Assembly: GCA_038237845.1 (NCBI GenBank)
Contig: JBBRYH010000002.1
Coordinates: 51,384 to 115,383 of the forward strand
Length of the DNA stretch: 64,000 nt
Direction of reading: 5' to 3'
From: Bacteroidia bacterium
GTDB taxonomy: Bacteria > Bacteroidota > Bacteroidia > Palsa-965
Part shown: positions 1,659 to 14,782 of the stretch, one piece after another
How the letters are laid out: each line of letters begins with the position of its first letter
Numbering within the stretch: position 1 is the stretch's first letter
Program-made: the position numbers and the translations under genes
Notes under the pieces: generated by a model
The model's input: only the letters and a program-made list of their open reading frames with translations
The model's database searches: none
Told to the model about the DNA's origin: nothing

Positions 1659-2183
1659 CTATTTTGAAATTTCTTTCTTTTTGATTCCAGACAAAGCCAC
1701 TTTGAGTCGAAAGTTTTTTGCCATAGCATCGAAAGTTACAATGACAAAATTTTCTCCAACGAATTTTTCAATGTTAGCAGTAAAAGCTTTGAATTCACTT
1801 AATTTAAATTCTATTCGGTCTCCAATTTTTAATTCTTGCTCATCCACATCATCCAAAATAAATCCATGTTCAACAAAATATTTCAATCCCTCCATTTCCT
1901 CTTCTCTTATAATTGCTGGCTGGCCATTAAATCGCACATAATTTAATACCCCATTTTCATAACGAGGCTTATCCATTTCCTCCTTAGCAAGAAAAACAAA
2001 AACATATCCACTAATCAAGGGAGATTCAACTTTTTTTTTTCGGTCGCTCCATTGGCTCACTTTTTTTACGATCGGCAAATAACACTCAATGCCAGTCTCT
2101 TTAAATCGCTGACAAATTCTCTTTTCGTGCCTCACATTAACATAAAGCGCGAACCAATTTTTTATATTTTTATTCGTGACCAT
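1659..2183 (-). CDS. upxY: UpxY family transcription antiterminator (NusG paralog)
   Basis: WFALYV...EK, ECYLP, QWSDRKKKVESPLISGYVFV NGN domain and KOW-like C-terminus; lies upstream of polysaccharide genes. Confidence 0.92.
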   Translation of the reverse strand: MVTNKNIKNWFALYVNVRHEKRICQRFKETGIECYLPIVKKVSQWSDRKKKVESPLISGYVFVFLAKEEMDKPRYENGVLNYVRFNGQPAIIREEEMEGLKYFVEHGFILDDVDEQELKIGDRIEFKLSEFKAFTANIEKFVGENFVIVTFDAMAKNFRLKVALSGIKKKEISK

Positions 2184-2184
2184 T

Positions 2185-2231
2185 TACAGCTTCGCCACCT
2201 CAGTCACATTTGTAAATGCCCGGCCAGTGGA
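2185..2231 (-). promoter_or_regulatory. candidate ops-like pause / UpxY recruitment element
   Basis: Minus strand reads CCACTGGCCGGGCATTTACAAATGTGACTGAGGTGGCGAAGCTGTAA-ATG: a GC-rich hairpin followed by a GCGAAGC mini-hairpin 5 nt before the upxY start. Confidence 0.55.
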
Positions 2232-2249
2232 AATTATTTTTATTAAATA

Positions 2250-2780
2250 CTATTTGCTCCAGAGTAACAGAGGATGCATTCCAGGCTCCTTTATTTTCTC
2301 CAATTCAAATTCATCACTTGTATAATGTACGTATCGAATTTTTTTGTGAATCTTCTTTTCGGCTTTTTCAATCAGTCCAATCAAAAATGTTTTATCAATC
2401 TCACCTACTAAAACCAAATCAATAATATCAGTATTCTGTCCTTTCGCTAATTTCCCAACGAGATAAACTTTTTTAAGATCTCCCATACGCTGGAGAATAT
2501 AGTCTATCACATGATCAAGCCCCATGAGCTTCATGACAATACTATTGATGTCATTAAAAAGCGGATGTTCTGCGTTGGCTTTAAATACTTTTTTATTCCC
2601 ATCAAGATGAGAATTAATAAAACCGGCTTTTTCGAACTTATTAAGTTCTAAACGAATTGCATTTGTGGATTCTCCAAACTCTTCTTCCAGCCCACGGAGA
2701 TAGGCAGTAGCTGAACTGTTGAGAAAAAATTTCAACAATAGCTTGATACGCGTTTTTGATGAAATTAAGGTTTCTATCAA
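2250..2780 (-). CDS. ArsR-like winged-helix regulator with C-terminal nucleotidyltransferase-like domain
   Basis: LISSKTRIKLLLKFF, YLRGL..EFGESTNAIRLELN (HTH); C-terminal VYLVGKLAKGQNTDIIDLVLVG resembles the G-S..D-x-D NTase motif. TTG start. Confidence 0.75.
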   Translation of the reverse strand: MIETLISSKTRIKLLLKFFLNSSATAYLRGLEEEFGESTNAIRLELNKFEKAGFINSHLDGNKKVFKANAEHPLFNDINSIVMKLMGLDHVIDYILQRMGDLKKVYLVGKLAKGQNTDIIDLVLVGEIDKTFLIGLIEKAEKKIHKKIRYVHYTSDEFELEKIKEPGMHPLLLWSK

Positions 2781-2784
2781 CTTC

Positions 2785-2808
2785 GAGTAGTTTATCTACT
2801 CAAAAATA
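2785..2808 (-). promoter_or_regulatory. palindromic operator GAGTAG-N5-CTACTC abutting a TAnnTTTG -7 promoter element
   Basis: Perfect 6-bp arms at 2785-2790 and 2796-2801. The minus-strand TATTTTTG lies at 2801-2808. The palindrome ends 4 nt before the start codon of the wHTH gene. Confidence 0.6.
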
Positions 2809-2960
2809 GATTTTTATTTTAACAAAAAAAACTGTTTTGGGATAAAACTTTCTGCTTTCCAAATGGAGTAAAAACTATCTATAAATACGCTTCAAAGGAT
2901 CAAAAACCGAATTTTTAAAAAGTTAACTTTATTGGACTTTTTCTGAGTTTTATTAACATA

Positions 2961-2991
2961 AATGGGCCAAAACAAACAGTTTTAGCCCATT
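2961..2991 (-). terminator. stem-loop / probable terminator after wzc
   Basis: Minus strand AATGGGCTAAAAC-TGTTT-GTTTTGGCCCATT forms a 13-bp stem with one G-U pair. Confidence 0.6.
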
Positions 2992-3011
2992 ATTGAATGT
3001 TTTTTACGATT

Positions 3012-5441
3012 CTAATTCTTACCCGGCGAGGATTTAGGTTTGGCTGAGGAGCCATAACCGCCACCATATCCACCACCACCATAACTGCCATAACCGCCAC
3101 CATAGGAACCATATCCTTTATAATTATATCCATATCGGTTATAATAGTATTTGGACTTCCGACGTTTGACACCATTTAAAATAAATCCAAAGTGAACGTC
3201 AGGATTCAAAGAAGCAATTTCATGAGCATTCTGAAGTGATTCTCTAGAAGCAAATCGGGTATTCAATACAAAAATCAAAATACTTGCTTCTCTTACAAGA
3301 ACGAAGGCATCAGAAATCAAACCAATAGGAGGAGTGTCAATGATTACATATTCATAGTGTGCTTTACAATATTCAAAAATATCCTTCATTGCTTTTGAAG
3401 TGACAAGTTCAGAAGGATTTGGAGGAAGTGGTCCTGAAAGAATAGTGTCTAGATTTTCAATCTGAGTTTTTACAATTACATCTTCTATCTTGTCTTTACC
3501 TATTGCAACAGTCGAAATTCCTTTTCCACTAGGAAGATTCAAGCCTTTTTGAACCCTTGGTTTATGCAAATCCAACTCGAGTAGGACTACTTTCTTTCCT
3601 GTTTTCGCAATAGCAGCGGAAAGGTTCAATGAACAGAAAGTTTTCCCTTCACCTGGATTATTAGAAGTAAGGACAATTACTTTCGCCTTTTCGTCGGTAC
3701 TCATATATTGCAAATTCGTCCGAACTGTCCGGAATGATTCTGCCATAGGCGATTTTGGATCGTGTTCAACTGCTAAAGAAAGTTCTTTCATCATCTTATC
3801 GAAAACAATATCACCAAGTATCGGCAACTCGGTTGAACTTTTTAACTCTTCAAAAGTTTCAATTCGATGGAACAATATGACACGAACAAAAACAAGAATA
3901 AATGCAAGAATTAATCCAACACCCAAAAAGGTATAAATGATTTTCTTTTCATCAGGACTTACAACTCCTACATTTCTTGGACGTTCAATTATTTTGACGT
4001 CAGGAATAATGGCCGCTTTTGAAATTATCGCATTCGCACGTTTTTGTAATAGGAAAACAAACATATCCTGAAATGCTTTTTGACGACGCATAATATTTAA
4101 TAAACCGCGTTGTTTTAAAGGAAGCATTTGCAATTGGTCGTTGTAATATCCAATTTCTGTATTTACGCCTTCAATTTTTTCATTGATTGCTTTTCGAGAG
4201 TTCTTTATATAAATTAAGATATCTCTTTTGGTAGAATCGATCTGATTTCTAAGATTTTTTACGGCCTGATTTTGAGAGGTCCCGATTAGCAATACGGAAG
4301 ATAAAGCCTGGCGTTTATTATATAAATCATCCAATGTCGAAACTTGAAATTGATCATTCTCCAGAATATAAGCCGAAGGCGGAAGGAAAGTAGGATCTCT
4401 ATCTGCAATTACATAATTCTCCAAATCATCAAGTGATTTCTGCTGCAACTCAAGCGCCTTTTTATTTCCTTCATAACCACTGTATCGATCAAAATATTGG
4501 CCTGCCTGTCGATCTAAATCAATGACAGAATTTTTTTCCCGAAATTGTTGAAGGGTATCTTCAATATTATCTAGAATATTACTTACGTCTTCTAACTGTC
4601 GATCAATAAAAAACAAGGTGCTTTTATTGATTTCCAATTTAGAAATAAGTGAATTCTCCATATATACAGAAGCAAGCGTATCCAGAAACTTTGTGCTTCT
4701 TTCAGGCAAAACATCCTGAGAAGTTAATTTTAAAACATTTGTATAATCAGGATTCTCAACTGAAAGATGATCTAAAAATAATTTTGTGAGGTCTGCCAAT
4801 CGATGAGGCTGGATAAGGTAGTTGGCCATATTCGGACCAGTAATTGCACTTCCAATTACGTTACTCTTTTTAGACACCAGAATTCTCATTTGAGGATTTT
4901 CCAATTCTTCATTAAATTTTCCGTCGACTTTAGTTTCTTTTCCATCAAAAAGGAAAGTCAACTCATAATCATTTTTCGAAACAATTCTGAACTTCATCTT
5001 TTGTTCATAGAGGGAATTGTTCAGGACAAATATTTTTATGGAAAACGGCACACCGGAGTAAACCTCTGTTGTTCTAATACGTCCAACGAGAAAGTAAGAA
5101 ACGTCAAAGTCAAGTTTTAAAAGTGCTTTTTCAATTAAATCCTGAGATCTTAAAACCCGTATTTCATTCGAATTATCAACAAATGTTTTATATGAATTTC
5201 CATAATATTTTGTGTTTTCAGAAATTACACTTCCAGGATTATAGTCATCATTCGACTCTAACAACAAAGAACTACTGGAAGCATATATCTTATCCAATTT
5301 ATAGACATAAAATACGCCGATTGTATATGCAATTGCTCCAAACAATACCACAATCCACCAGTTCTTACGAACTATTGGAAGGATTTTTGCGAGGTCGTTC
5401 AGAGAAAAACCACCTTTGGGTGCTACAACTTTGTTCTTCAT
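3012..5441 (-). CDS. wzc: polysaccharide co-polymerase / BY-kinase (Wzc/GumC family)
   Basis: Two TM segments flanking a coiled-coil periplasmic region, Walker A SNNPGEGKT, A' ELDLHKP, Walker B VIIDTPP, and a C-terminal Tyr/Gly cluster. Confidence 0.93.
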   Translation of the reverse strand: MKNKVVAPKGGFSLNDLAKILPIVRKNWWIVVLFGAIAYTIGVFYVYKLDKIYASSSSLLLESNDDYNPGSVISENTKYYGNSYKTFVDNSNEIRVLRSQDLIEKALLKLDFDVSYFLVGRIRTTEVYSGVPFSIKIFVLNNSLYEQKMKFRIVSKNDYELTFLFDGKETKVDGKFNEELENPQMRILVSKKSNVIGSAITGPNMANYLIQPHRLADLTKLFLDHLSVENPDYTNVLKLTSQDVLPERSTKFLDTLASVYMENSLISKLEINKSTLFFIDRQLEDVSNILDNIEDTLQQFREKNSVIDLDRQAGQYFDRYSGYEGNKKALELQQKSLDDLENYVIADRDPTFLPPSAYILENDQFQVSTLDDLYNKRQALSSVLLIGTSQNQAVKNLRNQIDSTKRDILIYIKNSRKAINEKIEGVNTEIGYYNDQLQMLPLKQRGLLNIMRRQKAFQDMFVFLLQKRANAIISKAAIIPDVKIIERPRNVGVVSPDEKKIIYTFLGVGLILAFILVFVRVILFHRIETFEELKSSTELPILGDIVFDKMMKELSLAVEHDPKSPMAESFRTVRTNLQYMSTDEKAKVIVLTSNNPGEGKTFCSLNLSAAIAKTGKKVVLLELDLHKPRVQKGLNLPSGKGISTVAIGKDKIEDVIVKTQIENLDTILSGPLPPNPSELVTSKAMKDIFEYCKAHYEYVIIDTPPIGLISDAFVLVREASILIFVLNTRFASRESLQNAHEIASLNPDVHFGFILNGVKRRKSKYYYNRYGYNYKGYGSYGGGYGSYGGGGYGGGYGSSAKPKSSPGKN

Positions 5442-5856: not shown

Positions 5857-5926
5857 AAGTCTAACCATTAACGCCAGCATTGTAAATCAATTTGGAGATT
5901 TGCATTCACATCAAAAAGTTTTGACC

Positions 5927-8900
5927 ATGAAAAAAGCTACATATATTTTCGTAACCTGCCTCTTCATTTCATTGAGTTCGCGTGCAGGTGTTTTCACTTC
6001 TGTCGTTTCTGGCAATTACGGTTCATCAGGTACCTGGACTTTTACTGGTGCTGACGCGGATGGAATTCCGGATTCCGATGATGATGTTACCATTGCTGGT
6101 CCGCATACTATAACGCTTACAGCAGCTTCGAATGCAAAAACACTTGTAATTAATCCTACAGGAACCATTAATTTAAACAATACCCAGATGTCAGTTTGGG
6201 GAAGTTTTACAAATAATGGCAGTTCGACAGGTTTAGGAAGTTGGATTTTTCGTGGCTTTGGCACTTATTCTGGAAATCCAATTAATAATACAGGTGCGAT
6301 TTTCTTTTTCTCCAGTTATATTATTGCTCCAGGAGTAAATCTTTTTAAGAATGGAAGTATTACGGTTTCAAGTTTTTCCATTGTATCTAATAGAGGTTCT
6401 GTTAATCTTTTTGCAAATGGTCAAATGAACATTAATGCGAATGGAAAATGGATTAATGCTGCAGGTTCCAATTTGACATTATCTTTTAACCCTGTAATTA
6501 CCGGCATCCTTGATGCATCTGCAAACGCAAATACAGTAACCTATTCTACTGCTGGTTATAACCAGGTGCAAGCAATCAATTGTACCTATTACAATTTGAA
6601 TATTAACTCATCAGTTGTTGCAACAAAATCACTTACGGCGGCAATAAATATTTTGAATAACCTTACAATTGCACCATTAGTTACCTTGAATTGTGCAAAT
6701 AATAATATTAATCTTGGTGGGAATTGGAATAATGCTGCAAATACAAACTGTATGAATCTGGCTTCGGTCAATTTCACTGGCAGTGGAATTCAGACAATAA
6801 CTCGTACTGCTACAGAACAATTTAAGGATGTAAACTTAATGGGCACTGGTAGCGTAAAGTTAATGACCGATGTAAATATTTCTGGAACCAGTACACTAAC
6901 AAGCGGTACGCTTGATCCTAATACTTTTGTTTATCATCAAAAAGGTGTTTCCTGGTTAGGTAACGGTGGTGCATGTAATACAGCAAGTGCCGGAATTGTA
7001 ATGTTTGATGGTTTGCAAAATCAAACTTTAGGTGGAACCGTTGGAACAACATTTGGAAACCTGACCATCAACAATCCTGGATTTACTGTTACTTGTATAA
7101 CAACACAAACAGGTAGTGCTACTACTATTTTGAAAGCAGGGACATTTGATCCGGGCACAGTGGTGTTCCATCAAAAAGGAGCATTGTGGAATGCAAACGG
7201 AGGAACATTAAGTAACGTCTCAAGTGGTTCAATTACTTTCGATGGTACGGTTCCACAGTCAATCGGAGGAACTGTTGGTACATCATTTGGAAATATCATT
7301 ATCAATAGCACATCTACTGTTTCGCTTGCAAGAATTTTGGATGTAGCACAAACCTTAACCCTCCAAAGTGGGACGCTAGATGTTTCAGCAAGTTTTTTTG
7401 ATATTAATCTGTCAGGAAATTTTGTAAATAACGGAGGAACTTTAAATGCACAGAGTGGAACTGTTTATTTCACGGATATCGCACTTGCTGCACAAACTGT
7501 TAGTGGTACTGGTTCCACAAACTTTTTCAATATCACTTCTAATAATGTTACAGGTGGTGTTACAGTTACCTCTTCCATTATGAGAATTTCTGGTGTTTTA
7601 CAAATCAACACAATGAATTTTGGAACTAGTGGAACTGGAAAAATAAATTTAATAGCACCAAACGCAACTTCAACAGGAAAAATCGGTCCAGTACCTGCAG
7701 CTTCTTCACTTACAGGAACAGGTTGGAGCGTATTTTCATATATAAATGGTCCAGCAACTGCATACTGGCAATATTTGGGAACACCGATAAGTAATACGAC
7801 ACTTGCAGATTGGGATACGGATACTCGTTTTTATATGTCGGGTGTTGGTGGAAACGACGGAAATGCATGTTGTCCTATTTTCTATTCTGTTAGAACTTAT
7901 AGTCCAACAACAAATACATATACGAACGTTACTACTACAACAACAAGTCTTATAAAGGGTCGTGGTTATATGGTTTGGATGGCTGATAACTTACAATCAT
8001 TAACTGGCCCACTTCAATTTGATACTAAGGGCACACCGAATTTTGGAACTGTTAATCGTGCAGTTACTGCTGGCGGACCTGGTGCAGGATATAATTTGGT
8101 TAGTAATCCTTATGCATGTCCAATTACATATGCTAATGTTGTTGCTGCTTCCTCAGCTTCTTTAAATGCAAATTTTTTAATTCTCCAGGAGAACGGAAGT
8201 TATGTAACTAATCCAAATAGCGGAACAATTGCAGCTGCTCAAGGCTTCATGTGTATTGCTGGTGCAAACGGCAACATTACTTTTACGGAGAGTTGTAAAA
8301 ATGTTTTTGGTACTCCAAATATCATTAGACAAGCACAACCAACTGATTTCATTAGAATAGCTTCTGGTAACGGAACAAATGGACTTGGTGGAGAAACAGA
8401 AATTAAATTTACTTCTGATGCTCATAATGGAAAAGATTTCAATTCAGATATGCCTTTTCTAGCTAGTCCATATGATGATGCAACTAATATTTATACAACT
8501 GACAACGATGGACAGAACCTTTTATTAAATGCATTAGATGCTAATCAGGATGTTCTTGAAATTCCAATGTCTGTTTTATCAGGTACTCCTGGCAGTCAGC
8601 TTTTATCTTTCAAAGGAATCAATGGATTATCTGCCTATAGTTGTGCAACTTTGATTGATGTTACCTCTGGCGAAAAAACAGATTTACGTGCACATGATAC
8701 TTATTCCTTTAATGCAAATGGAGCTGGCGAAAAACATGATTTCATTTTACGCTTTGAGCGCGATGGAAATTGTCCTTTGAATGAACAAGGCATTGCAGCT
8801 TCTTTAGATGCTTCAACCAGAGTGTTTACAAACAATGGAAACATTCTTGTACAATTTGGATTTGAAGATCTAACTGATGTCGTGGTTACTGTTTTAAATG

Positions 8901-9043
8901 TTGCGGGACAGGAAGTATCAATTCCAAAAGGAATGACAGTTTCAAATGAAACTATTGCACTTGACAGTCCTGGTGCGCATGGTATTTATCTTGTTAAGAT
9001 TGCAAAAGGTGATGAAATTGTCACAAAGAAAATTTACTACTGA
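5927..9043 (+). CDS. large T9SS-secreted adhesin-like protein with beta-helix-like repeats
   Basis: Signal peptide MKKATYIFVTCLFISLSSRA from ATG 5927; G/T/N/S-rich ~80-aa repeats (GTLDP....HQKG..W..NGG...FDG...Q..GGTVGT.FGN); C-terminal CTD ending GIYLVKI......TKKIYY. Confidence 0.85.
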   Translation: MKKATYIFVTCLFISLSSRAGVFTSVVSGNYGSSGTWTFTGADADGIPDSDDDVTIAGPHTITLTAASNAKTLVINPTGTINLNNTQMSVWGSFTNNGSSTGLGSWIFRGFGTYSGNPINNTGAIFFFSSYIIAPGVNLFKNGSITVSSFSIVSNRGSVNLFANGQMNINANGKWINAAGSNLTLSFNPVITGILDASANANTVTYSTAGYNQVQAINCTYYNLNINSSVVATKSLTAAINILNNLTIAPLVTLNCANNNINLGGNWNNAANTNCMNLASVNFTGSGIQTITRTATEQFKDVNLMGTGSVKLMTDVNISGTSTLTSGTLDPNTFVYHQKGVSWLGNGGACNTASAGIVMFDGLQNQTLGGTVGTTFGNLTINNPGFTVTCITTQTGSATTILKAGTFDPGTVVFHQKGALWNANGGTLSNVSSGSITFDGTVPQSIGGTVGTSFGNIIINSTSTVSLARILDVAQTLTLQSGTLDVSASFFDINLSGNFVNNGGTLNAQSGTVYFTDIALAAQTVSGTGSTNFFNITSNNVTGGVTVTSSIMRISGVLQINTMNFGTSGTGKINLIAPNATSTGKIGPVPAASSLTGTGWSVFSYINGPATAYWQYLGTPISNTTLADWDTDTRFYMSGVGGNDGNACCPIFYSVRTYSPTTNTYTNVTTTTTSLIKGRGYMVWMADNLQSLTGPLQFDTKGTPNFGTVNRAVTAGGPGAGYNLVSNPYACPITYANVVAASSASLNANFLILQENGSYVTNPNSGTIAAAQGFMCIAGANGNITFTESCKNVFGTPNIIRQAQPTDFIRIASGNGTNGLGGETEIKFTSDAHNGKDFNSDMPFLASPYDDATNIYTTDNDGQNLLLNALDANQDVLEIPMSVLSGTPGSQLLSFKGINGLSAYSCATLIDVTSGEKTDLRAHDTYSFNANGAGEKHDFILRFERDGNCPLNEQGIAASLDASTRVFTNNGNILVQFGFEDLTDVVVTVLNVAGQEVSIPKGMTVSNETIALDSPGAHGIYLVKIAKGDEIVTKKIYY

Positions 9044-9057
9044 AATTGAATCTGCAA

Positions 9058-9288
9058 ATGAAATTCAATAAATATTTTCTCCTTACAGCAACAGTTTTGC
9101 TAATTGTGATTAGCATTCAAACCGGTCATGCACAACCGCCACCTCCTCCTCCACCAGTTGGAGGTCCGCCATGTTGGCCTCCTCCATGTGTTCCTGTTAA
9201 TTCCGGGATCATTTATGTAGTAGGTGCTGCCATTTTATTTGGTGCTTACGCATTGATCAAAACTCTCCGAGCACGCACAGCTGAATGA
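9058..9288 (+). CDS. 76-aa Pro-rich micro-protein with C-terminal exosortase sorting signal (PID-CTERM-like)
   Basis: Signal peptide ending GHA-Q, then QPPPPPPPVGGPPCWPPPC, motif VPVNSG, hydrophobic helix IIYVVGAAILFGAYALI and basic tail KTLRAR; immediately upstream of an exosortase. Confidence 0.8.
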   Translation: MKFNKYFLLTATVLLIVISIQTGHAQPPPPPPPVGGPPCWPPPCVPVNSGIIYVVGAAILFGAYALIKTLRARTAE

Positions 9289-9295
9289 TTCTTTG

Positions 9296-9832
9296 ATGAA
9301 GCTTTCATCACCTGAACGTCGTATCCTTCTTTTTGTAATCCTTTTTCTGGGTATTTATTTATCCTGGATGATGTTGTATGAATGGCTACTTCATCCTTGG
9401 GGAAAACTAGATACACTTGTAATTAACGACTCTTCTCAATGGGCAATTTTCCTACTCGAGAAAATGAATTTCCAAACGTTTACAGGTGATAACGCAACCA
9501 TTCGAACTCTTGGCATCGATGGAACACACGGGCTTTGGATTGGAGATCCCTGTAATGGAATCTCACTCTTCGCTTTATTTTTCAGTTTTATCCTAGCCTA
9601 TCCAGGAAGCTGGAAACATAAATTATGGTTTATTCCGGTTGGAATTACTGCAATTCACACCATGAATATTATTCGCATAACCAGTTTATGTATTATTGTT
9701 TTAAAAAAACCGAATTGGCTTGAATTTAATCATACTTATCTCTGGCAGATATTTATGTATGGATTTCTATTCCTGCTTTGGTTAATTTGGATTAAGAAAT
9801 TTTCTACCAAAGGAAACGTTCCTAAGTCATGA
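9296..9832 (+). CDS. exosortase/archaeosortase family protein (XrtF/XrtX-like)
   Basis: Multi-TM protein with the Cys-Arg-His triad in canonical contexts: IGDPCNG, NIIRI, FNHTY. Confidence 0.88.
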   Translation: MKLSSPERRILLFVILFLGIYLSWMMLYEWLLHPWGKLDTLVINDSSQWAIFLLEKMNFQTFTGDNATIRTLGIDGTHGLWIGDPCNGISLFALFFSFILAYPGSWKHKLWFIPVGITAIHTMNIIRITSLCIIVLKKPNWLEFNHTYLWQIFMYGFLFLLWLIWIKKFSTKGNVPKS

Positions 9833-10302
9833 CAAAAGAAATCAGAAGCAAAATCTTCATCGCAATTCTTCTTGTGGCTTACATTGCGACTGGTTTCTTC
9901 AGGGAATTTCTTTTCCTCAATATAAACGAACAAAGCAGAGTTACCTTTTATCACGATATTGATTCGCATGTTGCTTCATCCTTGCAATGGCTATCCTCTT
10001 TGAGTTATCCGACTCTTTATTATGCGAAATGGCCTTTAACACTATTTTTCACAACATTTTTTGGATTTTTAGCCGCTACAATTATTCGATTATGGTTCAA
10101 CGATAAAAATCTTGTAAAAATCACATGGCTTGCCTATGCGATTACATTTGGAGCAGGCTTACTCTTTTATCTTGCAGGTTCATTATCAGGAAACCGTGAA
10201 ACCACTTACGATTTGGCTAGATTTTTAGCTGGCTTAACCGAAACTCCTGCCCTATTGGTAATGTTATTGGCTTCTTTTCTGGCTATGCGTCGTAAGGCAT
10301 AA
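9829..10302 (+). CDS. exosortase-associated membrane protein
   Basis: About 4 TM helices, FFREFLF motif; ATGA overlap with the exosortase stop suggests translational coupling. Confidence 0.7.
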   Translation: MTKEIRSKIFIAILLVAYIATGFFREFLFLNINEQSRVTFYHDIDSHVASSLQWLSSLSYPTLYYAKWPLTLFFTTFFGFLAATIIRLWFNDKNLVKITWLAYAITFGAGLLFYLAGSLSGNRETTYDLARFLAGLTETPALLVMLLASFLAMRRKA

Positions 10303-10350: not shown

Positions 10351-11625
10351 ATGAAAAAGGACACCGTAATATTCGATTTAATTAAAAAAGAACTGCATCG
10401 CCAGACCAGCGGAATTGAATTAATCGCATCTGAAAATTTTGTCAGTGCACAAGTGATGCAAGCAATGGGATCGGTGCTTACCAACAAATACGCTGAAGGG
10501 CTACCAGGAAAAAGATATTATGGTGGATGTGAAATTGTCGATCAAACAGAACAGTTAGCTATTGATCGTGCAAAATCATTGTTTAATGCAGAATGGGTAA
10601 ACGTACAACCGCATTCAGGTGCTCAAGCCAATGCTGCTGTAATGCTAGCTGTTTTAAAACCAGGAGATAAAATTCTCGGATTTGATTTATCACACGGTGG
10701 CCATTTAACGCATGGTTCTCCAGTAAATTTTTCAGGTAAACTTTATTCTCCCTCTTTTTATGGAGTAGAAAGAGAAACCGGATTAATTAATTATGATAAC
10801 GTAGAGAAGACTGCGAAAAAAGAAAAACCTAAATTAATTATTTGTGGTGCTTCTGCATATTCACGCGATTGGGATTATGTACGTTTAAGAAAAATCGCAG
10901 ATAGTGTTGGCGCATTATTGATGGCTGATATTTCTCATCCAGCAGGTTTGATTGCACGAGGTATTATGAATGACCCGATGCCGCATTGTCATATTGTTAC
11001 AACTACAACACATAAAACTTTACGTGGACCACGTGGAGGAATGATATTAATGGGAAAAGATTTCGAAAATCCATGGGGGTTAAAAACACCAAAGGGAGAA
11101 ATCAAAACAATGACAGCATTATTAGATGCGGCTGTTTTCCCAGGAACACAAGGCGGACCTTTAGAACATGTCATTGCTGCTAAAGCTGTTGCATTTGAAG
11201 AAGCACTTTCAGAAAGTTTCTTGAAATATGCAGTTCAAGTAGTAAAGAATGCTTCTGTCATGGCAGATGCATTTATGGATCGCGGATACAATGTAATTTC
11301 TGGAGGTACTGAAAATCATTGTATGTTAATTGATCTCAGAACAAAAAATATTACTGGTAAACAGGCTGAAAATGCTTTGGTAAAAGCAGATATAACTGTA
11401 AATAAAAACATGGTTCCTTTTGATGACAAATCCCCATTTGTTACTTCAGGAATTCGTGTTGGAACACCCGCAATTACTACCCGTGGAATTAAAGAAAAAC
11501 AAATTCCAAAAATCGTTGATTTGATTGATGAGGTAGTGATGAATCACGAGAATGAAACAAAAATTCTTGCTGTTAAAAAAGAGGTGAATAAAATTATGAA
11601 GGCGTATAAATTATTTGCCTATTAG
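10351..11625 (+). CDS. glyA: serine hydroxymethyltransferase
   Basis: [43 protein letters not shown]. Start set to ATG 10351 because the track's TTG lies in the TACTTTTG promoter (10319-10326). Confidence 0.98.
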
Positions 11626-11643: not shown

Positions 11644-11679
11644 AAAAGAGGCTTGGAATTAATTTTTTAAGCCTTTTTT
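11644..11679. terminator. bidirectional intrinsic terminator
   Basis: AAAAGAGGCTT...AAGCCTTTTTT between convergent genes. Confidence 0.7.
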
Positions 11680-12319
11680 ATTTGGGTACAATTTCAATCG
11701 GCATCAATTTACCTTTGTTGGCATCAAATGCAGTCACGGTAATGATAGCAAAACTCGCGACGCGTTTCGTGTTAGGATGTTCTTGTTTACCACCTAATCG
11801 TTTTGCTTTTCTTGCCGGTTGCCATTTTGAAAGTTTACCTAAATAATAATAACAAACATTTTCTAATATTTCACCTGTAGAATCCTGATGTAGAATTGGA
11901 ATCTTATCACATGTTGCAAAACCATTTTTATCTACCGAAAAAATAAATCTTGCACTATCAGACCGAACAGAATCAGCCCAGGCAAATGAATAATTTGTTT
12001 CGCTGATGTATCCAATCCAATCAAAACCATTATCAGAATTCAATCCTTCTCGAATTGGAACTGGTGCAAAGGCATTTCTTACAGAATCTGTAAATACAAT
12101 TTGTTGTGTAGAAATCTCCGTTATTTGTTTTCGATACGATTTATTATCCCGATAAATAACTGTCATTTGAACGCTGAAGGAAGCAGAGACAGGAGCACGG
12201 TGAACAACAATTACTCCTGCAGGAATAGAATCGCGACTTTGCGAAAACACTTTTAATGTAAACAAACAAAGGAAAAACAAAAAAGGAAGTTTAAGTTTCA
12301 CTCCGCAGTTGAAACGCAT
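11678..12319 (-). CDS. exported hypothetical protein, TonB-C-like features
   Basis: Signal peptide ending VFS-Q; FIFSVDKNG and KWQPA are reminiscent of TonB C-terminal domains. Confidence 0.55.
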   Translation of the reverse strand: MRFNCGVKLKLPFLFFLCLFTLKVFSQSRDSIPAGVIVVHRAPVSASFSVQMTVIYRDNKSYRKQITEISTQQIVFTDSVRNAFAPVPIREGLNSDNGFDWIGYISETNYSFAWADSVRSDSARFIFSVDKNGFATCDKIPILHQDSTGEILENVCYYYLGKLSKWQPARKAKRLGGKQEHPNTKRVASFAIITVTAFDANKGKLMPIEIVPK

Positions 12320-12357
12320 TCACAAAATTAAGATTAAGATTGAATATTAACGATTAA

Positions 12358-13086
12358 CTATTTTTCAGAAGGAACATTAGTATTTTTTTCCATTGATTTT
12401 TTTTGCTGCTCATCCAATGGTGGTGAATTGAGTGGATAATCAAAAGGCGCATATCTCGAATTTTTTTGTTCTACAAGCAATGGATAAGAAGAGACAATTA
12501 CAAATACTTCACAATAATAACTTTCTAGAATTAGTGGAGATTTTCTGAATAATTTTTTCTTTTCATAATATCCTCCTGCATCACCCCAAATAGAAATCTG
12601 CTGACTTGTACGAGTTAATTCTTTCACCAACTCATCTGACATTTTAAATGTGTATTCTGGATCATCTAATACACGCTTTATTCTGCCTTTTGAATCGATC
12701 CACATTCCGATAACCAATGTATCAACTCGAGGAGTATCATTTGCGTTAAATTTAAAATTCATGTTTTCGACAAACAATTTTGAAAGCAATTGTGTTTCTC
12801 TCGGATAAACACGTTTAAGTTTCGGTGAATATACTGTGGAATCAAAAACCGGCACATTGTCTACTTCAATAATATTTCCCGCAATCGGATCAGTAACAGT
12901 CTTATTTTCTCTTACCATACTCACCTTCGAGAGATAATATTTATATTCTACTTTGACATAGGGAATAATATTGGATTTACGGACGTAAATAATTCCTTGA
13001 GGAATCTCCGCTACTTTTGGGATCGTATCCTGCGCAATTACAGAAATTACAATACAACTAAAAAATAAAACAATTAAGGTCTTCAT
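12358..13086 (-). CDS. exported hypothetical protein, probable paralog of 11678..12319
   Basis: Signal peptide ending VIA-Q; IPQGIIYVRK compares with IPAGVIVVHR, and MWIDSKG with FSVDKNG. Confidence 0.55.
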   Translation of the reverse strand: MKTLIVLFFSCIVISVIAQDTIPKVAEIPQGIIYVRKSNIIPYVKVEYKYYLSKVSMVRENKTVTDPIAGNIIEVDNVPVFDSTVYSPKLKRVYPRETQLLSKLFVENMNFKFNANDTPRVDTLVIGMWIDSKGRIKRVLDDPEYTFKMSDELVKELTRTSQQISIWGDAGGYYEKKKLFRKSPLILESYYCEVFVIVSSYPLLVEQKNSRYAPFDYPLNSPPLDEQQKKSMEKNTNVPSEK

Positions 13087-13101
13087 CGCCGCAAGAATTT
13101 A

Positions 13102-14760
13102 TTAAAGATCCTGCCCAATTTTGAAAAATGCTTTCATCTCTTCAGCGGTTTTGAATTCCTTCTCAACGGGTTTCAAACTAACTGTCCCCGAACCAACAGA
13201 AGGAAGTTTTGATAATTGATCGTTATCAGCATAAAATAATTTACCGTCTTTAACAGCCCAAATAATGTTAGAGGATTTTGGATTAAAATGAAAGCCTGCT
13301 AAAGATTGCGCATAATGATAATTGTATAAAGCTTTTTTATTTCTGTCAACCAAAAACAAATTCGCAAATTGTTCAGTATAGGTCTTACCATCGTCTTTAA
13401 AGTTTAAAACAATAATACCTCCTTGCGGATAAGAAGACGGGCAATCAGTATTATAAATACCAAATTCAGAAACTTCAAATACATGAATCAGATTTACCAA
13501 TTTATTTGCAGTTGCCTGATTTGTGGGATTACCCTGAACGTAATTTGCCGTAATAATTTGTCGACTCTTGAAATCCAAATAAGCATTATACTCACCCAAC
13601 TTTTTAGAATAATCAGCGAATTCCTTATTGTATTTCTCTAACGCAATTGCATAAGACTTTTCATCAAGTGCAGGATATACATCCAACATTATCACTTCAT
13701 TCCCTTTTGCCAATGCCAATTTATATTTATTCAAACCATTTCCATAGGATAATTTTATAGATTCCCAGGTTACATTGTACCATTTTACATCAAACTTCTG
13801 GGTCTTTTCATCCACCATAAAAATCATATTCTCATATGCCTGCATCTCAGGAAATTCTTTTGGATCAATTGCAACAGTAAAACGATTTTTCGTTAAATCA
13901 ACTTTCACTGGTTTGATTGGTTCACTTGGAGGACTTGGTATATGTTCTTCCCAAAATGGATTTACATTAGGGTTTGTAATGATGGAAGAATCTTTTTTCA
14001 CAGGAGTTAGCTTATCTTTTCCCAAATAATTCCAATTGCCTGCAAGCGTATCAAACCTGTATAGATTATATTTTACTCCTGATTCTTTCGAAGCAAACTC
14101 AACTTTCACTTTTTTATCTTTGGCTAGATAAACAGTTTTACCATTAATAAACCCAGTAATTTCCATCATGCCTGCAGATTCGAATTGATACGTCTGTCCC
14201 GCAGAATCGTATTGCATCGGAATTCCCGAAAGGAAAAAATCTACTTGATTACGAAATTCTCTATATTGAATATTTACATTTCCAGAAACAACATTTCCAT
14301 TTTCATCAACAAATGCATTTGCAGGGAATGTTACTTTTGTTCCATTGAGATGAGTAAATGTCCCTCCGCTTGTCGAACTGACATTATAAGAATGATTTTT
14401 AATAATTAGACCTTTTATTGGAGGAGCAACTCTTCTTTTTGAGCTAACTATTTGTGAATTACTAGAATTAATAGGATTGGTTGAATCGGAAATTAAAACT
14501 GTATTCGTTTGAACATTAGGAGATGTTGATTTTTTTGAATTGTTTGTATTAGGAAGTCCCTTGTAAATAAAAACTCCACATACAACTACTACAACAGTAG
14601 CCATCGATCCAAGAAACCAGCCAGATTTCCAGAATGGTTTTTTAATCACTGTTCCTGGTGCAGCATTATACTGCTTTAGTAATTCGTCGAAATTACGACC
14701 TGACAAAATCTCTTCCGAAGAAGGTTTTTGGCGATCGATATTGACTTTATATTTTTTCAT
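13102..14760 (-). CDS. single-pass membrane protein, probable anti-sigma factor with large extracytoplasmic domain
   Basis: Short cytoplasmic N-terminus (~45 aa), one TM helix, GTKVTFPANAFVD..G..VSG.V.IQYREF domain; directly follows the ECF sigma gene. Confidence 0.65.
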   Translation of the reverse strand: MKKYKVNIDRQKPSSEEILSGRNFDELLKQYNAAPGTVIKKPFWKSGWFLGSMATVVVVVCGVFIYKGLPNTNNSKKSTSPNVQTNTVLISDSTNPINSSNSQIVSSKRRVAPPIKGLIIKNHSYNVSSTSGGTFTHLNGTKVTFPANAFVDENGNVVSGNVNIQYREFRNQVDFFLSGIPMQYDSAGQTYQFESAGMMEITGFINGKTVYLAKDKKVKVEFASKESGVKYNLYRFDTLAGNWNYLGKDKLTPVKKDSSIITNPNVNPFWEEHIPSPPSEPIKPVKVDLTKNRFTVAIDPKEFPEMQAYENMIFMVDEKTQKFDVKWYNVTWESIKLSYGNGLNKYKLALAKGNEVIMLDVYPALDEKSYAIALEKYNKEFADYSKKLGEYNAYLDFKSRQIITANYVQGNPTNQATANKLVNLIHVFEVSEFGIYNTDCPSSYPQGGIIVLNFKDDGKTYTEQFANLFLVDRNKKALYNYHYAQSLAGFHFNPKSSNIIWAVKDGKLFYADNDQLSKLPSVGSGTVSLKPVEKEFKTAEEMKAFFKIGQDL

Positions 14761-14782
14761 GGCGATAGAATGCAAATAAATA

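Follow-up and report, generated by a model that had tools for sequence, protein, structure and literature searches.

The closest described relatives of the system treated here are the PID-CTERM micro-proteins and exosortase X (XrtX). This system is already known from NCBIfam, where the substrate, the enzyme and an XrtX-associated membrane protein are catalogued as NF046080, NF046081 and NF046082, respectively. We analyzed a 64,000-nucleotide stretch of a Bacteroidia genome (contig JBBRYH010000002.1; "the window" denotes this whole stretch) and focused on a micro-protein gene of 76 codons plus stop at 9058..9288 on the plus strand, which encodes a divergent PID-CTERM-type sorting substrate. With considerable confidence, we read this open reading frame (ORF) as the single dedicated substrate of the XrtX encoded downstream, namely a cargo-less PID-CTERM micro-protein with a D-to-N exchange in its motif. 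The window is a modest variant of a catalogued system; what it adds is a D-to-N sub-clade that falls below the model's threshold, a clear one-to-one pairing in a genome that is complete, and region-wise selection figures that place the constraint on the 20-residue product.

Compared with catalogued PID-CTERM/XrtX loci, the window shares the signal peptide, the Pro/Gly-rich middle, a motif of the P-x-D/N-G-G kind, the helix and the basic tail, as well as the gene position directly before XrtX and its partner. It differs in that its micro-protein misses the NF046080 model, shows P-V-N-S-G in place of the signature P-[IV]-D-G-G before the helix, and has a longer helix (17 residues) without the GG-KK stop of canonical members. 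XrtF of Flavobacteriia (TIGR04128) is a closely related enzyme model that the window's enzyme also matches (95.9 bits, cut-off 90), with XrtX as the best and specific match (NF046081, 174.3 bits, cut-off 170). The XrtF system also has a small partner membrane protein, and we know of no substrate assigned to it.

The PEP-CTERM/exosortase A (EpsH) system resembles the window in its homologous enzyme family, its tripartite signal and an adjoining gene for a Wzc-type kinase (background from the available excerpt of the Haft preprint, 10.1101/2023.06.07.544157); the Wzc-like protein of the window matches the XrtA-associated models TIGR03018 and TIGR03007, both below cut-off. In PEP-CTERM systems one enzyme serves many substrates, often with real domains, whereas the window pairs one enzyme with one cargo-less peptide. 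The motif also differs, and the window's system is restricted to Bacteroidota. Dedicated one-to-one sorting systems with consecutive genes are a recognized pattern in the excerpted preprint (10.1101/2023.06.07.544157). The PGF-CTERM/archaeosortase A system of Haloferax volcanii, whose enzyme is distantly homologous to XrtX, has been analyzed experimentally, with C-terminal cleavage and covalent lipid anchoring described in the available text of PMC6098224; there, however, the cargo is a large S-layer protein, and the organism and its lipids are archaeal. The signals of glutamic-type intramembrane proteases, as given in the preprint excerpt (10.1101/2023.06.07.544157), are also tripartite, with a Cys immediately ahead of the hydrophobic segment, but those enzymes are unrelated, the window has an exosortase, and not all members of its family share the Cys pair.

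Architecture of the micro-protein

The gene runs from an ATG at 9058 to a TGA at 9286-9288. An in-frame TTG at 9046 would lengthen the product by 4 residues; homologues begin at MK-x-NKY instead. Residues 1-25 (9058..9132, plus strand, as are all parts of the gene) form a signal peptide, MKFNKYFLLTATVLLIVISIQTGHA, with two Lys, a hydrophobic core of 15 residues, G at −3 and A at −1, and a predicted signal peptidase I cut between HA and Q. The predicted mature peptide that follows, QPPPPPPPVGGPPCWPPPC, has 19 residues (26-44; 9133..9189), of which 12 are Pro, 2 Cys and 2 Gly; together with V45 it amounts to about 2.0 kDa. The signature motif V-P-V-N-S-G (residues 45-50; 9190..9207), a variant of the PID-CTERM signature, leads into the last part of the protein (9208..9285), which consists of a hydrophobic segment of 17 hydrophobic residues, IIYVVGAAILFGAYALI (residues 51-67), and the basic tail KTLRARTAE (residues 68-76), with three basic residues. 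A tripartite C-terminal tail is thereby combined with an N-terminal signal peptide. The signal peptide and transmembrane segment were assigned by eye according to the usual rules, and the parse given in the preliminary description of this locus (a 25-residue signal peptide, a Pro/Cys peptide of about 19 residues, VPVNSG, a transmembrane segment and KTLRAR) holds in every count, to the residue.

Pfam and NCBIfam matches on the micro-protein itself (BimA, YhaL, UL42) were low-complexity noise only; Pfam PF28310 is found on some homologues. A promoter and terminator scan returned sites no more numerous than in shuffled sequences.

Conservation and selection

The ORF is a real gene under strong purifying selection. 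A word-indexed search returned 25 homologues of 61-80 residues (E 1e-37 to 2e-6). In an alignment of 26 family members (A1), to which the micro-protein is 38-84% identical over its full length, Q26, P30-P33, C39, W40, P41-P43, C44, P46 and G50 are invariant; this set includes all of CWPPPC and the Gln at +1, present in 26 of 26 members. Codons were compared with 22 distinct relatives from the fetched loci. Against the four closest (L001-L004), the proportions of nonsynonymous (pN) and synonymous (pS) differences were 0.10-0.13 and 0.61-0.65, with a ratio of nonsynonymous to synonymous substitution rates (dN/dS) of 0.07-0.12. Across the 22 relatives, synonymous sites were close to saturation (pS 0.56-0.81), and for five more distant pairs saturation precluded a ratio. 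The preliminary description had staked its reading on the ORF being conserved, and by both the homologue count and dN/dS it is.

The constraint is unevenly spread. Summed over all pairs, pN/pS was lowest, at 0.125, over the 20 mature residues, the most constrained region; it was 0.44 in the motif, helix and tail, and 0.64 in the signal peptide, the least constrained. Since pS is about 0.72 in the signal peptide, the mature part and the tail region alike, the low pN/pS of the mature part reflects constraint at the level of its amino acids and not of the DNA.

Searching 1.84 billion representative proteins with a profile of the alignment gave 1,196 matches at E ≤ 1e-3, of which 98 reached E ≤ 1e-10. 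The best 150 of the 1,196 are 54-155 residues long, with a median of 77. Among the longer matches examined, P0157 has an over-long called start, and P0188 (155 residues) is a tandem product of two micro-proteins, by head-to-tail fusion or read-through. None of 212 candidates was a longer relative of the micro-protein, which is weak evidence. CWPPPC and related C-x(3-5)-C forms are common: for this profile, itself built from the CWPPPC clade, exact CWPPPC occurs in 70 of the best 150 matches, and C-x(3-5)-C stands directly before the motif in 110 of the 126 among these 150 in which the motif was found.

One exosortase and one substrate

XrtX (179 residues; 9293..9832, plus strand) begins 4 nt after the micro-protein gene and overlaps by 4 nt with the gene for the XrtX-associated membrane protein (157 residues; 9829..10302, plus strand); 14 nt separate the micro-protein from the protein encoded upstream. 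The candidate catalytic residues of XrtX are C87 (9551-9553), R128 (9674-9676) and H147 (9731-9733), all on the plus strand. Across 40 XrtX-like sequences, C87 and R128 never vary and H147 is 97% conserved; the same holds in a second alignment (A2). According to the excerpt of the Haft preprint (10.1101/2023.06.07.544157), Cys/Arg/His is the suspected catalytic triad of exo- and archaeosortases. The partner protein scores 52.7 bits against NF046082, below the cut-off of 75; homologues occupy the corresponding position at other loci. The preliminary description had read the micro-protein as built for double processing by signal peptidase and exosortase, and this gains support from the context, with an XrtX that retains its candidate catalytic residues lying immediately downstream.

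In this genome (completeness 100%, contamination 1.3%), XrtX pairs exclusively with the micro-protein: one enzyme, one substrate. XrtX is the only exosortase-family match in the entire genome. When a profile of 85 PID-type tails was run against 36,964 ORFs of at least 40 residues, the window's ORF was found at E 2.2e-12 and the next best at 1.7; because the profile includes the window's own tail, the lack of a second match is the informative result. A first regular-expression scan of the genome for sorting tails gave 15 matches, of which just the micro-protein ORF was convincing. Complex prediction for XrtX, the partner and micro-protein residues 26-76, run without controls, gave a score of 0.06 against a mark of 0.32, which speaks neither for nor against the complex.

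A sub-threshold branch of PID-CTERM

NF046080 spans 25 positions with a curated cut-off of 26 bits. The window's micro-protein is homologous over its full length to proteins that pass this model (alignment A1), and 19 of the 26 aligned family members match it, with a best E of 1.6e-11. Within the family the motif grades through PVNSG, PVNGG, PVDNG, PVDGG and PIDGG; among 85 non-redundant micro-proteins, a set weighted heavily towards the window's genus, 2 have PVNSG and 14 PVNGG. An N in the motif also arose separately in locus L126 (PLNGG). Because of the matching members and the intermediate motifs, we count VPVNSG within PID-CTERM: it is a D-to-N (and G-to-S) variant and no new signal. The preliminary description had set VPVNSG apart from PID-CTERM, a distinction that the graded series and the model matches do not sustain. 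The P-V-N-G/S-G sub-clade, with its longer helix and no GG-KK, escapes the curated model as a whole, and within the window's genus the NF046080 cut-off is reached in only 4 of 24 sampled genomes.

Across Bacteroidia, the PID-CTERM tag sits almost only on cargo-less micro-proteins. It is found above cut-off in 176 of 401 Bacteroidia genomes, some of them complete on a single contig, and, by genus, at E ≤ 1e-4 in 93 of 202. Among the 150 matches listed from the 401 genomes (95 more lie beyond them), 144 fall in stop-to-stop frames shorter than 150 residues; the other six frames have 153, 169, 173, 194, 209 and 222 residues, and the one of 209 (L082) has a low-complexity middle and, by eye, no evident folded domain. 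In the set of 85, the median length of the mature part is 19 residues and its composition 47% Pro, 10% Gly and 9% Cys, and by a crude cleavage rule 64 of the 85 have Gln at +1. The mature part holds two Cys in 66 of the 84 micro-proteins that could be parsed and none in 15; the Cys pair is therefore a clade feature and not one of the whole family.

A PID-like micro-protein lies at 17 of the 21 closest XrtX loci (L001-L021) and at 0 of 59 more distant exosortase loci. In a family-level sample, in which a single PID-CTERM locus stands for each of 30 families, 20 loci have an XrtX-like gene within 3 kb of the micro-protein. Variations in layout were also seen: in L019 the micro-protein is placed after the partner gene and carries several Cys, and two or three PID-CTERM micro-protein genes stand in tandem at G262:C1:2472948-2473424 and G189:C41:103855-112259.

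Proposed processing and product

The course of processing set out below is inferred, as are the nature of the acceptor and the part that the product would play. After Sec export, signal peptidase I would cut between A25 and Q26, and Q26 would be cyclized to pyroglutamate by the genome's glutaminyl cyclase, while the C-terminal helix and basic tail would keep the intermediate in the inner membrane. XrtX, acting through Cys87/Arg128/His147, would then recognize P-V-N-S-G, cut there and hand a peptide of roughly 20 residues to an acceptor, which by analogy with archaeosortase A may be a lipid, since that enzyme attaches one. The expected product is an envelope-bound peptide of about 2 kDa, N-terminally blocked and proline-rich, whose C-W-P-P-P-C pair could form disulfides in this clade. 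The double processing, by signal peptidase with pyroglutamate formation and then by XrtX, is well supported by inference. The lipopeptide nature of the product is proposed solely by analogy with archaeosortase A, and the protease resistance that the preliminary description expects of it is likewise a proposal.

Both features behind the Bacteroidetes Q-rule, which is in print in the available portion of PMC5837995, are present: the invariant Gln at +1 and a glutaminyl cyclase homologue encoded in the genome. The latter is a lipoprotein-like M28 protein of 329 residues (L149:1183-2172, G000:C49), closely homologous to bacterial glutamine cyclotransferases of solved structure (E 1.6e-83) and named by no NCBIfam model; the plant-type glutaminyl cyclase PF05096 is absent from the genome. 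The claim in the preliminary description that the mature N-terminus would be cyclized to pyroglutamate finds support to this extent. Its term "RiPP-like" (for ribosomally synthesized and post-translationally modified peptides, RiPPs) is only loosely apt, because no modifying enzyme besides the exosortase is encoded nearby.

The preliminary description also proposed that CWPPPC could form a loop with an internal disulfide. Intermolecular paired disulfides seem at least as likely, because two Cys four residues apart in a rigid polyproline would lie far from each other. In the IgG1 hinge, Cys-Pro-Pro-Cys forms paired inter-chain disulfides. The hinge serves as an analogy only, for the preference of a rigid proline spacer for disulfides between molecules over internal ones: it too has two Cys in polyproline, but the protein is unrelated and the spacing is 2 residues versus 4 in the window.

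Points against the proposed reading and alternative explanations

Several points weigh against reading the ORF as the XrtX substrate. NF046080 gives no match to the window's micro-protein even at E ≤ 10, and a six-frame search of the genome with this model likewise found none at E ≤ 10. The motif carries N where the acidic D would stand, and a longer helix takes the place of the short one with GG-KK, so that recognition of the tail by XrtX is assumed. No column of the XrtX alignment separates the 8 N-type from the 30 D-type partners in 38 pairs, and there is therefore no sign of co-adaptation with motif type. Ten of the 30 family-level loci lack an XrtX-like gene within 3 kb of the micro-protein; L014, L017 and L018 have an XrtX-like gene and no PID-like ORF within 3 kb. 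We found no publication on XrtX or PID-CTERM, which are known as database models, and the excerpted text of a 2018 review (PMC6098224) describes bacterial exosortases as lacking experimental analysis at that time.

What the processed peptide might do is a separate matter, and here the gene directly upstream is of interest. It encodes a surface protein of 1,038/1,047 residues (5927..9043, plus strand) with the type A C-terminal domain of the type IX secretion system (T9SS; TIGR04183, 25.5 bits, cut-off 23); the frame is open from a TTG at 5900, and the database copy (P0026) begins at 5927. The XrtX-made, 20-residue pyroglutamyl polyproline peptide might be a membrane-tethered adaptor that ties this type IX protein, or perhaps a Wzc-made exopolysaccharide, to the envelope through CWPPPC disulfides or polyproline binding, which we consider unlikely on present evidence. 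In the family-level sample, a same-strand ORF of at least 150 residues ends within 600 nt upstream of the micro-protein in 24 of 30 loci, and all 24 were scanned. A T9SS type A domain was found in 15 of the 30 directly upstream ORFs, 14 above cut-off and one (L121) at 21.3 bits. With a baseline of 8.4%, which is our own estimate from 284 first-look candidates over an assumed 3,400 genes, at least 15 of 30 would arise by chance with a binomial probability of 3e-9; because the families share ancestry, this figure overstates their independence. The genome is rich in type IX cargo: 150 of the 284 type A candidates were scored, and all 150 were above cut-off. In 13 of 30 loci the upstream ORF is homologous to the protein upstream in the window, with 23-35% identity and an alignment confined for the most part to residues 450-1045 of the latter. 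The pair also persists where the enzyme has moved away, as in genomes G028 and G033, in which cargo and micro-protein stay together beside glyA with XrtX about 5.5 and 14 kb off. Even so, shared descent and not function may account for the synteny, and such a neighbor is absent from half of the family-level loci.

Other features of the upstream protein also bear on the adaptor proposal. Two of its alignment columns, C915 (8642-8644) and C958 (8771-8773), follow the Cys content of the adjoining micro-protein (L116-L144): where the latter has the Cys pair, 6 of 10 cargos have Cys at the first column and 7 of 10 at the second, and where it has no Cys, 0 of 6 do at either. The pattern is confounded by phylogeny and could simply reflect a disulfide internal to the cargo. 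Exosortases work at the inner membrane, but type IX cargo is destined for the cell surface. The C-terminal 488 residues were modeled as tandem beta-sandwiches (AlphaFold 2, predicted local distance difference test 84.7), and a structure search with this model gave generic fibronectin type III and immunoglobulin-like matches only, with query template-modeling scores of at most 0.16. The protein has no sequence match in the PDB and only unnamed T9SS clusters in the Atlas; no name among its 120 homologues goes beyond "T9SS type A sorting domain-containing protein", and Pfam finds the sorting tail only, plus a weak G8 match in one relative. The sole genomic paralogue of the C-terminal region lies at G000:C12:37240-38412 (26% identity).

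Alternatively, the micro-protein could stay uncleaved as a single-pass membrane subunit, regulator or pseudo-substrate of XrtX and its partner or of the Wzc machinery, with the Pro/Cys stub in the periplasm, which strikes us as quite unlikely. Such a role would suit a protein with no cargo domain whatever, paired strictly one-to-one and spaced as in translational coupling, with a sorting tail that is itself moderately constrained. A Wzc-like gene does recur as a neighbor: in the window it encodes a polysaccharide co-polymerase/tyrosine autokinase (3012..5441, minus strand; TIGR01007, 163.3 bits) divergent from the cassette, and 11 other loci have a Wzc homologue in the same relative place and orientation (L012-L018, L123, L126, L132 and L133). 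But the tail is built like cleaved sorting signals, XrtX retains its Cys/Arg/His, the strongest constraint falls on the mature 20 residues and not on the helix, and XrtX would be left with no other recognizable substrate in the genome. In L014, L017 and L018, which are Vicingaceae-type metagenome-assembled genomes, the XrtX-like gene (40-42% identity) stands beside a Wzc homologue.

Release of the peptide as a free bioactive or signaling molecule, a RiPP-like pyroglutamyl proline-rich product, is in our view very unlikely. The product would be small and N-terminally blocked, and its mature part is highly constrained, as one would expect of such a molecule. Yet no genes for a modifying enzyme, exporter or receptor lie nearby, and no RiPP-type enzyme is found among the neighbors (T9SS cargo, XrtX, partner, glyA and Wzc). 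Across the family the mature parts are very diverse, down to those devoid of Cys, which better fits a spacer or anchor, and sortase-type signals usually keep their products attached. That the gene is a chance ORF or a non-coding stretch rich in proline codons, as its short length, low complexity and a close homologue (P0003) annotated just "hypothetical protein" might suggest, is refuted by a frame kept across families and by mature residues nearly fixed while synonymous sites approach saturation.

Implications

Exosortases are widespread. Read as the dedicated XrtX substrate, the micro-protein offers a simple setting in which to study cut site and attachment, with one enzyme, one 2-kDa substrate and no cargo. 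It also exposes an annotation gap: when the genes of the sub-clade are missed and left as "hypothetical", XrtX seems to have no substrate. The recurrence beside one family of type IX surface proteins and beside Wzc points to a link, in Bacteroidota, between processing by exosortase and the assembly of surface proteins or capsule. If the adaptor proposal were true, exosortase and type IX pathways would meet at this locus, cargo-less PID-CTERM micro-proteins would be a missing link that holds one family of T9SS surface proteins at the envelope or hands them over, and in this clade the link would consist of paired disulfides from C-W-P-P-P-C.

Other features of the window

The gene order in the window is the Wzc-like gene on the minus strand, followed on the plus strand by the type IX protein, the micro-protein, XrtX, the partner and glyA. 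The cassette from cargo to glyA, with its operon-like packing, is kept within the genus (L001-L010 and most of L088-L108). glyA (serine hydroxymethyltransferase; 10351..11625, plus strand) is a conserved downstream neighbor and is probably unrelated in function to the cassette. Beyond it, three consecutive minus-strand ORFs of 213, 242 and 557 residues (11678-14775) have no NCBIfam match at E ≤ 1e-5. At the other end, on the minus strand, the Wzc-like autokinase has a Tyr/Gly-rich tail and is accompanied by an unassigned ORF of 176 residues (2250-2780) and an UpxY-family antiterminator (1659-2183). From its gene content, the region 1659-5441 is predicted to be the head of a polysaccharide locus that faces away from the XrtX cassette.

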